Made by a program: the position numbers and the translations under genes
From: a virus
Taxonomy: Duplodnaviria; Heunggongvirae; Uroviricota; Caudoviricetes
Length of the DNA: 6,364 nt
IMG/VR virus record: IMGVR_UViG_2713896780_000023
Reading direction: 5' to 3' (one strand)
Notes under the pieces: model-generated
Databases searched by the model: none
Told to the model about the DNA's origin: nothing
Seen by the model: only the letters and a program-made list of their open reading frames with translations
In this document: in pieces, positions 744 through 4,409 of the stretch
Layout of the letters: the number at the start of each line of letters is the position of its first letter
How positions within the stretch are numbered: position 1 is the first letter of the stretch

Positions 744-774
744 GTCGCTTTTCCTTATGTTGATTAATTAATCG

Positions 775-814
775 TTTACGGGATTCTGAAATCCCGTTTT
801 TGCCTGTTTTGTGT
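775..814. repeat. Direct repeat copy 1 (40 bp) containing the 20-bp palindrome ACGGGATT-CTGA-AATCCCGT (778-797); lies between rep stop and parM start
   Basis: Read directly: TTTACGGGATTCTGAAATCCCGTTTTTGCCTGTTTTGTGT. Matches copy 2 at about 33 of 40 positions; the 8-bp palindrome arms are identical while the 4-nt spacer differs. Confidence 0.7.
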
Positions 815-819
815 GCGCT

Positions 820-3642
820 TCATATATCGCGGCGCGTTTTTTGCTCATTTACGGGATTTGTGAATCCCGTTTCTGTCTGTTTTTTGTTTCCACTGGTCAG
901 GCCACCCCGCAGCAGGTCTGCTTTGCGGCGGGCACGTTCAGTGGTTTCACTGATTCTCTGTGCGTGCTCTGCGTCGCGGATGGCGCGCAGCATGTCAGAA
1001 AGCACGGTAACGGGTGTTTTCATGGTGTTCTGGTCCTGCTGAAGTGTGGATGCCAGACGTGCGGCGGCTTCGGGGTCTGATGCCCCCAGTTGTTCCAGAT
1101 AGCTGGCGACCGGGTTATGGCGGATCTCTGTGCTGCTTACGCCGTGATTACGGCTCAGGCGCTGCCAGAGCTGCGTGATTCGGCTGTCCGGGCGGGTATC
1201 CGGTTTGCGTACAATTTCAAATCCCTGCGGTGCAATGATGCTGCCGTCAACGTACAGGCTGCCGCCCCGTAACAGGTGCTGCATCTGCTGTTCACCGATA
1301 TGCAGGCCGAGAGATTCGGCAGATTCCCGCCATTCTTTAGCGAGTAATTCGTGGTTATCAGGCAAAGGCCGCTGCTGTTTGCGGCTCTGTGTCCAGCTCT
1401 GCATTTCATCACTGCTGTTTTTTGCCTGTTTGTCACGAAGCGAACGCATCAGCGCCCGGCGTTCGTGCCGTTTCAGTGAGTGCATCCATTCGTTCACTTC
1501 AACGCCATCAGGGAGCTGCGGCCACGGTGCTGGCCGTTCTTCCGGCTGTTCTGTCCCGTTGTTGTTCGTTTCCTGTACACGGGGACAGTTATTGCCACGA
1601 GTCCAAGGGGCGGCAGGGCCGCCCTGAAGGTCAAAACCATTTTCGCGGGCGCTGTCTTCCGCTTCCGGTTTACGTCTTACCAGCTTCCAGTTATCCGGGT
1701 GCGTGCACACGCGGGAAGACTCCCCGATGAGCGGCGACCAGATCCCGTAAATCTGTACACTCTGCTCGCCGTAATCGTTCAGCTCATCTGCGAGGTCGTA
1801 GGCGGTGCGAATCAGGTAGTCTTTGCGTGGAACAAGTACGCCACCCTGTTTCTCAATGTAGGTGGCAAAACATCCGGCATCAGCGGCAGCGAGTACCGCG
1901 TCCATTGCGTCATCCTTCAGCCGTTGCGGGCCTTCCGGGTTGCGTGCCATCTGGCTGGCAAGGCGGCGCAGTTCACGCCACACCTGACGGGAGGGGATAC
2001 CAAAGAACTGGAACTGGCGGACCCGGTGAAGGCGCGCCCAGCCGATGGCGCGTTCCACGCTCTCGGCCATTGATTTTCCGGTTTCGTGGTCAACGCGTGG
2101 CTTGCCCGTTTTCGGGTCGATGCCATCCACGGCGCGGCTGTCCAGGTTCTTTCCGATGTAGGTGGCGATGTAGCTGGTTGGTGTGCCTTTTGAGCCGTCG
2201 ACATACTCCACCTTAAAGCGCGGAGTAATATCATTGCCCAGCTCGTGGCGGTCTTCCTGAATGGCAATATCGCGGGTGATGGTCACGATGCTGTCGATTT
2301 CTTCTGGATGAGCAAAGACCATCATGTGCCAGTGCACGGTGCCGTCATGGTGAGGCTCCACCGTGCGGATGCCATACCAGCGCAGGCCGTCGCGGTTCAG
2401 TTTTTTGCGGACCGCCGCAAAAAACGTGTTAACCAGGTAATCGCTGGAGTCGCGCATGGTGGCCCCGTTCCATTTGGGGTTCGGATGACCGTTCTCCGTT
2501 GTTGCGTGGTATTTTGACGGGCAGGTGACAGTCAGAAACACCGCTCTGTCGCCACGGGCTTCGGCCAGAAGTTCCAGTCCCTTCATGGTGGCCATCATTT
2601 CTGCCTTACGGTGAACCGGGTTACTTACTCCCGCGTAATACACCGTCTCGAGATCAATCGTGAACCCGTCTTCATTTTCCAGCATGAAACTTTTCAGGAA
2701 ATCGCGTGTTTTCTCGCGCTGTGCGCGAAACTCGCTTAACGCGTCCTGGCTCAGATAGGGTGATGTTTTTCTGGAAACCAGACAGGCGGCGCGGAGTTGT
2801 TCTTCTCTCCACTCGCAACGTAACAGCCACAGTTTGCGTTTCCACCATTCCGCACAGGTCAGGCGAAGGATTGCGCCCGGCAGCAGCTCCGTGTCCGGTT
2901 CGTTCCTCCGGTCTTTGTCTGTTGTCAGTGCGTCATAATGTGGAGGCATGGCGTGCAGGTGTAACGCCATGCGGGCCAGCATCTGATACGCCTTCAGCGT
3001 TACATCCATGGTCAGTTCGCCATCAGTCGCGCCAAAGCCATCGCAGAGTTTTTCGAAGGTGCTGCTGAACATCGCCGCCGTCATGGTGGCCAGCGTCTGT
3101 ATCTGGTGTTTGTTGAGCTGCGGCAGGTAAAGCAAATCGTCCAGGCGTTCGCGTCCGGCAAGAGAGCGATAACCCGGTGTCAGCCAGCGGCTGTCGGTGC
3201 GGTCCAGACGTTCGAATATTTTGCGCAGGGTTCCGCGTGCATAGCGTTCCGCCTGCCAGCTCTTTTTGCCTTTCCGGCGATCGGCTTCCTGTTTTTTGCG
3301 CAGGAAGGAGAGGTGGCGAATAAGCGGATCGCGCAGATAGGACGGCAGCAGGCGCAGCGAGGTCATGGCTTCATCCACTGCGCCGCGTGCCTGTTTTCTG
3401 GCGTCTCCTGCCAGTGTGATGGTTTTGTCCTGTTTTTCCTGTGCGTCCAGGCTTTTATTAATCAGGTTGCCCAGCGGCGTGGCGGAGAACGCCGCATCAG
3501 CCATTTCCTGGCGGCGCTCGTTCTCTACCCGGTAGGCATCCAGCCAGGAGGAAAGCGCGGATTCAGGAGCGGGGATCCCCGTTCCTTCACGCCCCACTGC
3601 GTGGCGCGGTTGTTGCCAGTCCCTGATGTACTCTGCCGTCAT
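820..3642 (-). CDS. Rolling-circle replication initiator, HUH endonuclease of the P2 gpA / phiX174 A type (940 aa as drawn), with N- and C-terminal extensions
   Basis: Longest ORF in the window. Motif 1 FLTVT (aa 369-373, about 2524-2538); HUH motif V-H-W-H-M-M-V-F (H437-W438-H439, nt 2326-2334, checked as CAC TGG CAC on the reverse strand); motif 3 S-Y-I-A-T-Y-I-G-K-N-L-D with Y491 (2170-2172) and Y495 (2158-2160), matching the Y-x-x-x-Y-x-x-K pattern of phiX174 A and P2 gpA. ATG at 3642 lies 6 nt after the stop of the upstream ORF with only a weak SD, so coupling or a different start is possible. Confidence 0.75.
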   Translation of the reverse strand: MTAEYIRDWQQPRHAVGREGTGIPAPESALSSWLDAYRVENERRQEMADAAFSATPLGNLINKSLDAQEKQDKTITLAGDARKQARGAVDEAMTSLRLLPSYLRDPLIRHLSFLRKKQEADRRKGKKSWQAERYARGTLRKIFERLDRTDSRWLTPGYRSLAGRERLDDLLYLPQLNKHQIQTLATMTAAMFSSTFEKLCDGFGATDGELTMDVTLKAYQMLARMALHLHAMPPHYDALTTDKDRRNEPDTELLPGAILRLTCAEWWKRKLWLLRCEWREEQLRAACLVSRKTSPYLSQDALSEFRAQREKTRDFLKSFMLENEDGFTIDLETVYYAGVSNPVHRKAEMMATMKGLELLAEARGDRAVFLTVTCPSKYHATTENGHPNPKWNGATMRDSSDYLVNTFFAAVRKKLNRDGLRWYGIRTVEPHHDGTVHWHMMVFAHPEEIDSIVTITRDIAIQEDRHELGNDITPRFKVEYVDGSKGTPTSYIATYIGKNLDSRAVDGIDPKTGKPRVDHETGKSMAESVERAIGWARLHRVRQFQFFGIPSRQVWRELRRLASQMARNPEGPQRLKDDAMDAVLAAADAGCFATYIEKQGGVLVPRKDYLIRTAYDLADELNDYGEQSVQIYGIWSPLIGESSRVCTHPDNWKLVRRKPEAEDSARENGFDLQGGPAAPWTRGNNCPRVQETNNNGTEQPEERPAPWPQLPDGVEVNEWMHSLKRHERRALMRSLRDKQAKNSSDEMQSWTQSRKQQRPLPDNHELLAKEWRESAESLGLHIGEQQMQHLLRGGSLYVDGSIIAPQGFEIVRKPDTRPDSRITQLWQRLSRNHGVSSTEIRHNPVASYLEQLGASDPEAAARLASTLQQDQNTMKTPVTVLSDMLRAIRDAEHAQRISETTERARRKADLLRGGLTSGNKKQTETGFTNPVNEQKTRRDI
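848..887. repeat. Direct repeat copy 2 (40 bp) containing the palindrome ACGGGATT-TGTG-AATCCCGT (851-870); lies inside the last ~22 codons of the rep CDS
   Basis: Read directly: TTTACGGGATTTGTGAATCCCGTTTCTGTCTGTTTTTTGT; start-to-start spacing from copy 1 is 73 bp. Confidence 0.7.
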
Positions 3643-4083: not shown

Positions 4084-4133
4084 NNNNNNNNNNNNNNNNN
4101 NNNNNNNNNNNNNNNNNNNNNNNNNNNNNNNNN
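4084..4133. other. N-masked block (50 nt), sequence unknown
   Basis: Run of n characters in the input. Confidence 1.
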
Positions 4134-4203: not shown

Positions 4204-4358
4204 GGTGTGGCCTCTTTGCTCGGTGATAGAAATAACTCACCATCCAGAGTTGAGAATCTCGGGGTGGCGAGACGTACAGGGTTCTCAACACCGGAGAGCA
4301 AAGAATCCGGCCCGACCGAAGTCGGCCCCGTACGCCCCGCCATAATTCTGACGCGAAA
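4204..4358 (-). ncRNA. Candidate structured leader / small RNA region (minus-strand sense) between the two masked blocks
   Basis: Minus-strand hairpins read directly. (a) GGCCGAC-UUCG-GUCGG(G)CC at about 4311-4329, a GC-rich stem closed by a cUUCGg tetraloop. (b) Nested stem GUUGAGAA / UUCUCAAC (4248-4255 with 4281-4288) enclosing inner stem UCUCG-CCACCC-CGAGA (4256-4271). (c) GGUGA-N10-UCACC at about 4221-4240. (d) CCGGA-N10-UCCGG at about 4290-4309. No ORF with a complete, verifiable reading frame lies in this stretch. Boundaries are unknown because both ends are masked. Confidence 0.25.
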
Positions 4359-4409
4359 NNNNNNNNNNNNNNNNNNNNNNNNNNNNNNNNNNNNNNNNNN
4401 NNNNNNNNN
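4359..4409. other. N-masked block (51 nt), sequence unknown
   Basis: Run of n characters in the input. Confidence 1.

Follow-up and report, generated by a model that had tools for sequence, protein, structure and literature searches.

A candidate two-dyad, parC-like ParR-binding site upstream of parM in a P88-like prophage

The two direct repeats that separate the replication gene gpA from the actin-like gene parM in a 6,364-nucleotide stretch of phage DNA (the window) probably constitute, judging from their sequence and context, a parC-like binding site for the ParR protein of a type II ParM/ParR cassette, with an unusual layout of two dyads and no recognisable promoter. The DNA comes from a P88-like (Xuanwuvirus, P2-like) prophage, of which it is the early region; prophages of this type are present in 24% of complete Escherichia coli genomes. 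Its genes all lie on the minus strand, in the order gpA replication endonuclease, repeats, parM (Table 1). The gpA product is 30% identical to the A protein of P2. The parM gene (ATG at 743–741) is truncated by the left edge of the window; a full-length homologue of 319 residues matches R1 ParM structures with an E value of 9e-93. ParM and ParR are already annotated in P88-like prophages, and a search of the literature and of record annotations for the cis site, or for a role of the prophage proteins, returned no description of either.

Anatomy and conservation of the repeats

A direct-repeat search of the window returned a single family, made up of two 43-nt copies (772–814 and 845–887) that are 81% identical and start 73 bp apart; these contain the repeats at 775–814 and 848–887 described in the first-pass annotation. 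Each copy holds a perfect 8+4+8 palindrome, ACGGGATT-N4-AATCCCGT, in which, as had been noted, the arms are intact and the loop varies (CTGA at 778–797, TGTG at 851–870). The repeats had also been placed correctly, upstream of parM and astride the end of the replication gene, whose stop codon (820–822) falls between the two copies. With up to three mismatches allowed, the palindrome pattern has exactly two matches in the window, against 0.01 expected, and none of 200 dinucleotide shuffles gave two or more. A hunt for further copies, which the same annotation had advised, recovered these two only from the whole P88 genome (35.8 kb). Among the 120 stretches listed for viral contigs, all but five of the exact-palindrome matches fit the P88-type context: the palindrome either precedes a parM ATG by 54 or 127 nt or sits in P88-type sequence broken off at a contig end; the five others among those listed are unrelated and due to chance. 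Counted from the parM ATG at 743, the dyads begin 52 and 125 nt upstream, the position of a parC, and the repeats are iteron-like, being two 43-nt units of two inverted half-sites each. AA dinucleotides in the window are phased at 10.5 bp, to a degree reached by 4 of 1,000 shuffles; R1-type parC shows AA periodicity likewise (0 of 1,000 shuffles).

Table 1 Features of the gpA–parM junction in the window
Feature	Position	Strand	Remarks
parM (actin-like ATPase), first 247 codons	1–743	-	Pfam StbA_N 3.6e-82, ParM_N 1.1e-37
parM Shine-Dalgarno AAGGAA	751–756	-	7 nt before ATG; read from sequence
Proximal 43-nt direct repeat	772–814		Intergenic
Proximal dyad (copy 1 of the first-pass annotation)	778–797		ACGGGATT-CTGA-AATCCCGT
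Proximal GGG-N10-CCC core	780–795		Starts 52 nt upstream of parM ATG
Inter-dyad spacer	798–850		Contains gpA stop codon 820–822; approximately neutral evolution; without consensus promoter
gpA replication endonuclease, 940 aa	820–3642	-	Pfam Phage_GPA 1.8e-130; 3' end overlaps distal repeat
Distal 43-nt direct repeat	845–887		Dyad plus A-rich (sense-strand) 5' flank; 81% identity
Distal dyad (copy 2 of the first-pass annotation)	851–870		ACGGGATT-TGTG-AATCCCGT
Distal GGG-N10-CCC core	853–868		Starts 125 nt upstream of parM ATG

The dyad cores are kept in diverged homologues, as the first-pass annotation had required of a functional site, and they stay with parM. In a relative from Hafnia (L219), 24 of 24 arm-core positions are identical to the window (P about 1e-4), compared with 69% of positions elsewhere in the region and 67% at third codon positions of parM, and the GGGATT/AATCCC arms of the distal dyad are unchanged. 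The A-rich flanks are conserved at 15/18 positions in the distal copy and 15/17 in the proximal copy (798–814), and the inter-dyad spacer, identical at 34 of 53 positions, has evolved at close to the neutral rate given by the parM third positions. Relatives from Hafnia and Plesiomonas, whose ParM is 62–63% identical, carry two GGG-N10-CCC dyads 72–73 bp apart, the nearer one 51–59 nt before the parM ATG; in these deep relatives the dyads lie at −128/−55 and −131/−59. In the relatives L221 and L222 the motif stands at the matching place, where the surroundings no longer align. In relatives from Serratia and Enterobacter the arrangement is another one, which means that not every phage parMR cassette has this site. 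Across 118 upstream variants from the E. coli population, which are too similar to separate arms from flanks, the arms are no more conserved than the flanks; the parM Shine-Dalgarno is invariant in all of them. Window parM and the R1-type parM leader have in common the ribosome-binding context CATAAGGA.

The palindromes could in principle act through hairpins, on either strand. On plus-strand transcripts they might be intrinsic (rho-independent) terminators that block antisense or late-operon read-through into gpA: each hairpin there has an 8-bp stem, a folding energy of about −10 kcal/mol and a T-rich tail behind it, a terminator scan flags both, the tail is also present in the Hafnia relative L219, and of ten one-sided arm changes seven retain a G-U pair on that strand. 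The excess of seven (antisense) over three (sense) one-sided transitions is, however, not significant. No plus-strand gene ends here, the nearest (terminase, portal) ending about 2.5 kb away; the plus-strand folding z-scores are only −1.4 and −1.5; and a common haplotype, GCGGGATTTAAAAATCCTGT, disrupts the plus-strand stem of copy 1. The terminator shape is confined to the plus strand, the sense strand having no U-tract, and the hairpin is lost in L221 and L222, where it shrinks to 3–4 bp while the GGG/CCC positions and the 72–73-bp spacing stay. In the deep relatives the hairpin energy is only −3 to −5 kcal/mol. A terminator would also have no need of the same arm sequence across copies or genera, and we regard this explanation as unlikely.

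In the sense mRNA between gpA and parM, the palindromes could instead act as an attenuator or as an element for processing or stabilising the transcript, perhaps with copy 2 pairing over a distance with copy 1. The sense-strand hairpins reach −10.7 kcal/mol (z-scores −2.5 and −3.2), a 146-nt fold that pairs both copies has z = −5, and the inner arms of the relative L086 carry complementary changes. Yet neither hairpin has a U-tract after it, a frequent T-to-C change at 864 leaves a C-A mismatch on the sense strand, and L221 and L222 no longer have the hairpins. The double changes are matched by 256 of 500 shuffles for local pairing and by 121 of 500 for cross pairing, so that covariation of neither structure rises above shuffles. 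No Rfam family matches; hits are at chance level (E ≥ 0.34) and outside both palindromes, one of them overlapping the outer end of copy 2. Both hairpin readings are disfavoured, and the RNA element is very unlikely.

Linkage to parM and to the type of ParR

The repeats belong to the par module rather than to gpA. In one relative (L224) two other genes lie between gpA and the repeats; in another (L046) copy 2 is read through by a different open reading frame, and the boundary of copy 2 marks the start of homology with the window. The intervening reading frames of L046 (155 residues) and L221 (167 residues) are unrelated to each other and belong to no Pfam family. The statement that copy 2 encodes the last ~22 residues of gpA is correct for the lineage of the window. 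Because gpA stops before copy 2 in L086, L219 and L158, the overlap is a lineage-specific read-through and no designed superposition of regulatory and coding DNA.

The two copies show concerted changes, which suggest gene conversion. The repeats might be a duplication or recombination scar, now devoid of function, left at the junction by insertion of the par module; these changes would fit such an origin, as would the homology limits in L046, exactly at the boundary of copy 2, and in L113, just beyond copy 1. Against a neutral background of about 68%, however, the cores are conserved at 24 of 24 positions, and position and spacing are kept in lineages whose surroundings cannot be aligned, which leaves a scar highly improbable.

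A binding site for the replication initiator had been offered as the alternative to a partition site; the repeats would then be a binding or auxiliary site for gpA and part of the origin. The 3' end of gpA does extend into the repeats, and the origin of P2 is located within gene A, but the P2 nick sequence (GCGCCTCGG/AGTCCTGTCAATAAC) aligns, via the protein alignment, to 1577–1626 (GCCGCCCCTTGGACTCGTGGCAATAACTGT) and not to 775–887. Nucleotide similarity to other P2-like phages, about 70 of them, is confined to this stretch, the repeats are some 750 bp from it, and in L224 other genes stand between the repeats and gpA. Given the nick homologue at 1577–1626, the initiator-site reading, disfavoured like the two hairpin readings, was rejected as having next to no probability.

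The small ParR-like gene that the first-pass annotation expected beyond the left edge is found in near-identical elements. In P88, phiSM and E. coli prophages 97–100% identical to the window, parM is followed by a gene for a ParR/StbB protein (PF10784), and it is through these elements that the downstream adaptor of a ParMRC locus is seen. ParR of the near-identical elements, including E. coli 4/0, has 103/104 residues (103 in P88, where it is gp18) and matches PF10784 with an E value of 1.6e-24; the gene lies outside the window. A PDB sequence search found no relative of this ParR. In an AlphaFold2 model of the monomer (mean pLDDT 57, low confidence) the N-terminal strand is unformed, as expected of an obligate ribbon–helix–helix dimer, and owing to this low confidence the fold is assigned from the Pfam match only. 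ParR variants that are 41–94% identical conserve the N-terminal head and the extreme C-terminal tail around a hypervariable middle, as expected for an adaptor between DNA and ParM.

The repeat sequence covaries with the DNA-reading part of ParR. An N-terminus of the form TRR(I/V)SFYL accompanies GGG-N10-CCC in 4/4 lineages, against 0/7 others, the head NRK(I/C)SFY accompanies ATTTTTCT in 4/4, phages and plasmids together, and R1-type and TRRKI-type ParRs have other repeats, in a comparison of few groups that are phylogenetically non-independent. Set out as a table, ParR head against repeat motif would provide a first specificity code for StbB/ParR in Enterobacterales. A tblastn search with the ParR of Plesiomonas (L222), which has a TRR-type head, yielded no close relative on plasmids, identity not exceeding 41%, and a blastn search of 744–900 against plasmids returned prophage-bearing records only.

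Dyad symmetry and core conservation point to sequence-specific recognition and do not by themselves name the reader. As the early region encodes further DNA-binding proteins, the repeats might be bound by a protein other than ParR (a MarR-type winged helix-turn-helix protein, Cox, C or a host factor) that controls parMR or gpA, with no role as a centromere. The site nonetheless stays with parMR in elements that differ in their early region or at the gpA 3' end, and its motif type tracks the ParR N-terminus. A check by eye of the motifs of IHF, CRP, LexA and DnaA gave no fit; to our knowledge, and by a weak comparison from our own inspection, the dyads resemble neither P2 operator or late-promoter motifs nor the IHF, CRP and LexA consensus sequences. 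A reader other than ParR has a small chance of being correct.

Proposed function of the two dyads

Each 43-nt unit provides one dyad-symmetric site with the core GGG-N10-CCC, widened here to ACGGGATT-N4-AATCCCGT; its half-sites are about one helical turn apart, and the dyad is preceded by an A-rich phased flank. The two dyads, 73 bp or seven helical turns apart, lie directly upstream of parM. If the repeats are the ParR-binding site, ribbon–helix–helix dimers of ParR, encoded just downstream of parM, would read the half-sites with their conserved N-terminal strand (TRRISFYL) and assemble on both dyads, with the conserved C-terminal tails (NIRALFPE) facing ParM filaments. Once the phage has infected or been induced, these filaments would push its circular DNA or position it. 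The sequence comparisons show the anatomy of the repeats, how they are linked to parMR, their pattern of conservation and their covariation with the type of ParR; from these we infer ParR binding, segrosome formation and the biological role.

A scan for the sigma-70 consensus on both strands of 500–1300, which weak or non-canonical promoters might escape, returned no site, and of the promoter candidates picked by eye, GATATA/TATATG within the spacer and ATTAAT following copy 1, none is convincing, being poor or, in the spacer, unconserved. Since the site has no promoter consensus and gpA runs into it, parMR is probably transcribed together with the early operon, and the site may for this reason be more a centromere than an operator. 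Of the parC-like centromere/operator first proposed, the centromere half gains support, as a putative centromere for which all the predictions that could be checked were borne out, and the operator half finds none in the sigma-70 scan.

P2 replicates and is packaged from monomeric circles. It is conceivable, and we put it forward tentatively, that P2-like prophages, which occur in roughly one in four complete E. coli genomes as well as in Hafnia, Plesiomonas, Serratia and Enterobacter, possess an actin spindle of the plasmid type with a minimal centromere of two dyads, and that this spindle moves or separates monomeric circular genomes during infection or after induction, rather than serving plasmid inheritance. 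Such a spindle would affect replication, packaging or the establishment of lysogeny, and its place in the early lytic operon would keep an integrated prophage from disturbing chromosome segregation. The narrowing of the site to two short dyads offers a testable handle, namely a 150-bp fragment with four GGG/CCC triplets, on the question of why partition machinery of the plasmid type is retained by an integrating phage, and a compact natural centromere could be used in ParMRC engineering.

Comparison with known partition systems

Among the closest known systems is parC of plasmid R1, a type II ParMRC locus, reportedly described by Dam and Gerdes in 1994. As in R1, the site in the window lies directly upstream of a StbA-family parM, has a PF10784 ParR as its partner and comprises two repeat blocks some helical turns apart, with an A-rich sense strand and phasing of about 10.5 bp. 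The window ParM is about 47% identical to sampled R1-type plasmid ParMs (L093), the ParR reading strand is TRRISFYL here and RRTIAFKL in R1, and the host replicon is an integrating P2-like phage, unlike the R1 plasmid. R1 parC is 159 bp long and has 2 × 5 direct iterons of 11 bp that flank a promoter spacer of 39 bp (PMC2241845), whereas the window has two GGG-N10-CCC dyads whose starts are 73 bp apart and whose palindromes are separated by 53 nt, and it lacks a promoter consensus. More generally, a canonical parC has 4–10 or more direct iterons around a promoter, in contrast to the two dyads of the window, which has no sigma-70 consensus on either strand.

Two repeat blocks upstream of parM, as found here, are also the layout of enterobacterial plasmid parC regions (PMC2241845), in which the blocks are 62–94 bp apart. 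IncL/M, IncFIA/FIC and Cronobacter/ENNIH2-type plasmids (L090, L091, L227, L228) carry two to three blocks of 20–30 nt, 62–73 bp apart, upstream of parM–parR, and the IncL/M blocks have the same spacing as those of the window, 72–73 bp. These plasmid regions have other motifs (ATTTTTCT-type and GTTCTCT/ATCTC-type), which form direct rather than inverted sub-repeats and go with other ParR heads. We know of no experimental characterisation of these parC regions.

Paired direct and inverted half-sites are experimentally documented in srpC, the centromere of SXT/R391 elements, whose four short repeats, direct and inverted, are bound solely in pairs (PMC4489591). SrpMR is likewise a type II partition locus on a chromosome-integrated element, with its centromere upstream of the actin-like gene. 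It differs in that SrpR has no detectable similarity to ParR, its 13-bp repeats are of another sequence and the element is conjugative and no phage; binding and stabilisation have been demonstrated experimentally for srpC/SrpMR, whereas ParR binding to the site in the window is predicted from its sequence and context.

The likeliest functional analogue would be AlpAC/alpS of the Corynebacterium prophage CGP3, also an integrated prophage with an actin-like protein, an adaptor and upstream repeats (PMC4446434, PMC5539076). There the adaptor gene comes first, the proteins are unrelated, alpS comprises 24 short repeats (TTAAnnG) and the host is Gram-positive. The AlpAC genes are induced early and are required for efficient replication of phage DNA (PMC4446434, PMC5539076), and a spindle of the kind tentatively proposed here would be their Gram-negative counterpart.

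Gene content and identity of the element

Every gene of the window lies on its minus strand. Over its first 4 kb the window shares 97.5% identity with two phages of Xuanwuvirus (Peduoviridae), Escherichia phage P88 and Citrobacter phage phiSM, and the 261 bp spanning the repeat site are present in 1,304 of 5,426 complete E. coli genomes, chromosomally with rare exceptions. In P88, phiSM and E. coli 4/0, the 319-aa parM is followed directly by a 103/104-aa gene matching PF10784 (Plasmid_stab_B, the ParR/StbB family; E = 1.6e-24), so the ParR-like gene that the first-pass annotation had predicted past the left edge does exist; a variable region and then the portal gene lie beyond it. Downstream of parR the cargo differs by lineage: Serratia (locus L223, 4950–5584) has a HicAB toxin–antitoxin, Enterobacter (locus L224, 4911–6257) a KAP NTPase and P88 a ClpX zinc-finger-like protein, as is usual for moron or defence hotspots.

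Features of the window
Feature	Position	Strand	Evidence or content
parM, ParM/StbA actin-like ATPase, first 247 codons	743..1	minus	StbA_N, E 3.6e-82
Copy 1, repeat proximal to parM	772-814		43 nt
Palindrome of copy 1	778-797		ACGGGATT-N4-AATCCCGT
gpA stop codon	820-822	minus	
gpA, P2-type replication endonuclease, 940 aa	3642..820	minus	Pfam Phage_GPA, E 1.8e-130
Copy 2, repeat distal to parM	845-887		43 nt
Palindrome of copy 2	851-870		ACGGGATT-N4-AATCCCGT
P2 ori nick homologue, inside gpA	1577-1626	minus	GCCGCCCCTTGGACTCGTGGCAATAACTGT
Masked N runs	4084-4133; 4359-4409		
C4 antisense RNA	4260-4347	minus	Rfam RF01695, 78.5 bits, E 1e-14

Among relatives (L046, L086 and L221–L224), gpA ranges from 785 to 940 aa. 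The alignment with P2 A stops at about residue 800 of the window's gpA, and its last ~140 residues (C terminus, window 820–1300), for which no Pfam family was found, could have been appended or fused to the protein. The C4 antisense RNA match, at gathering level (threshold 45 bits), sits between the two masked runs. The counterpart of the first run in L006, the near-identical prophage of E. coli 4/0, measures about 190 nt, not 50, and belongs to a 76-aa gene whose annotation in P88 is 'derepression protein'; either masking changes length or the source differs there. The same prophage region occurs in NZ_JBQPOM010000071.1, labelled Vagococcus sp., with a ParM 98% identical to that of E. coli; the label is odd, this being a Gram-positive genus, and probably reflects contamination or an assembly wrongly labelled.

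The repeat pair and its setting

The pair of direct repeats described in the first-pass annotation is real: repeat search recovered both copies, 81% identical and 73 bp apart from start to start, together with their palindromes. With up to three mismatches allowed, the palindrome has two matches in the window (0.01 expected), and a search for further copies across the whole P88 genome returned only the same two. Among the 120 stretches of viral contigs listed, the exact palindrome lies 54 and/or 127 nt before the parM ATG with five exceptions, which are unrelated chance palindromes among the matches listed.

The gene preceding the repeat site differs between relatives. In the window's lineage the gpA stop codon falls between the two copies, so that copy 2 does code for the gpA tail, as had been proposed. 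In L086, L158 and the Hafnia locus L219, gpA terminates at a TAA immediately preceding copy 2, leaving both copies non-coding; in L046, another ORF of 155 aa runs through copy 2, and similarity to the window starts at the copy-2 boundary; and in L224 a methyltransferase-like gene and a small ORF lie between gpA and parM with its upstream repeats. The coding overlap is thus only a lineage-specific read-through (AAATAAC to AAAAAAC), and the repeats are part of the par module. In one viral contig (L113, 440–800), copy 1 and the parM start are kept and unrelated DNA, opening a new ORF, lies beyond copy 1, probably because the prophage is decaying and has been rearranged or has taken up an insertion.

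The other reading offered earlier, a replication-initiator binding site, is disfavoured because the homologue of the P2 origin nick lies elsewhere. The P2 nick, GCGCCTCGG/AGTCCTGTCAATAAC, falls as annotated within gene A, and when the P2 A and window gpA proteins are aligned it corresponds to residues ~672–690 of the latter. About 70 P2-like phages of Klebsiella and Salmonella, otherwise unrelated, resemble the window in nucleotide sequence at this segment alone. It is located about 750 bp from the repeats, and the origin reading of them is rejected.

Conservation of the dyads

The 118 distinct upstream variants from E. coli, in which the arms are about as variable as the flanks, are too alike to inform. 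Between the window and Hafnia L219, parM has 87% nucleotide identity (67% at third codon positions) and the 145-nt stretch running from copy 2 to the ATG 74%; within it, 24 of 24 positions match in the four GGGATT/AATCCC arm cores, against 69% elsewhere in the stretch (P about 1e-4). In the A-rich 5' flanks 15/18 and 15/17 positions are kept, and in the spacer holding the stop codon 34/53, a neutral level.

Deeper relatives, comprising a second Hafnia lineage (ParM 62% identical) and Plesiomonas (63%), are all P2-like prophages with the order gpA ... parM–parR ... portal. The sequence around their dyads cannot be aligned with the window; they carry GGG-N10-CCC pairs at −128/−55 (73 bp apart) and −131/−59 (72 bp) relative to the parM ATG, compared with −125/−52 in the window, on a background of 0.1–0.5 per kb with dyad sites excluded. 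Complementarity of the inner arm bases is lost in these relatives, and hairpin energy shifts from −10.7 kcal/mol to between −3 and −5 kcal/mol. Because the dyads persist while inner arm pairing decays, the conserved trait, judged from these comparisons, is a sequence-specific pair of half-sites about one helical turn apart, recurring seven turns away, and not a stem-loop.

Two rival readings invoke RNA structure or transcription termination. A structure acting as RNA on the sense strand would accord with the 146-nt fold, which favours long-range pairing between the copies, but neither this pairing nor the two local hairpins showed covariation above shuffles (pair counts, 77 distinct sequences), and the missing U-tract speaks against an RNA element or terminator on that strand; an Rfam search found nothing matching at the repeats. 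Read on the plus strand, the two palindromes resemble intrinsic terminators, although no plus-strand gene ends nearby, z-scores are weak, the copy-1 stem is broken in a frequent haplotype and the hairpins are gone in deep relatives.

The same or a complementary change in both copies is frequent: the left arm is ACAGGATT in both copies of L046 (3856–3965), the right arms are altered at the same position in L055 and L198, the inner arms read AACCCC and GGGGTT in L086 (3856–3965), and the right arm is AATCCCA in both copies of L219. Such paired changes suggest that the two sites evolve in concert.

Proposed ParR specificity and comparison with known centromeres

ParR variants within Escherichia are 41–94% identical, against at least 98% for ParM within E. 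coli. The variation is concentrated mid-protein (L001, 5468–5779; proteins P0001–P0083): the middle third is hypervariable, and just the first ~30 residues (MTTPTRRISFYLKPAAV...) and the final ~8 (NIRALFPE) are fixed, which suggests that the linker recombines or is under diversifying selection. In R1 ParR the C-terminal tail binds ParM, and the pattern is that expected of an adaptor whose ribbon-helix-helix head would read DNA and whose tail would bind ParM.

Across eleven loci, in groups that are few and not independent, the type of ParR head predicts the upstream motif. TRR(I/V)SFYL heads accompany two GGG-N10-CCC dyads in 4/4 lineages (0/7 other loci) and NRK(I/C)SFY heads accompany ATTTTTCT-containing repeats in 4/4 (Serratia and Enterobacter phages, IncL/M and IncFIA/FIC plasmids), while R1-type ParR has classic A/C-rich 11-bp iterons and the TRRKI(T/M)FYLNP group GTTCTCT/ATCTC blocks. 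Since the NRK group is found in phages and plasmids alike, the match argues for a real specificity relationship.

The favoured interpretation of the first-pass annotation, a parC-like site, survives all tests available here. Binding by ParR, action as a centromere and the site's biological role are what we infer, and the most likely mechanism, which we hold to be reasonably probable, is that ParR would assemble on the two dyads and couple phage DNA to ParM filaments. A promoter scan of the site found none recognisable, and parMR would probably be expressed from the early operon, not from an autoregulated promoter.

Enterobacterial plasmid parC sites, including that of R1, have two repeat blocks 62–94 bp apart just upstream of parM, as in the window. 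R1 parC consists of two sets of five iterons flanking a 39-bp promoter spacer and is intrinsically curved (PMC2241845); AA phasing of 10.5 bp is common to the window (equalled by 4/1000 shuffles) and the R1 type (0/1000). The plasmid sites differ from the window, which has merely two sites with inverted rather than direct half-sites, lacks a recognisable promoter and resides in an integrating phage. Experimental precedent for a paired half-site centromere on an integrating element is provided by srpC of SXT/R391, with its paired direct and inverted half-sites (PMC4489591), and precedent for a prophage actin-like system acting on excised phage DNA by AlpAC/alpS of CGP3 (PMC4446434).
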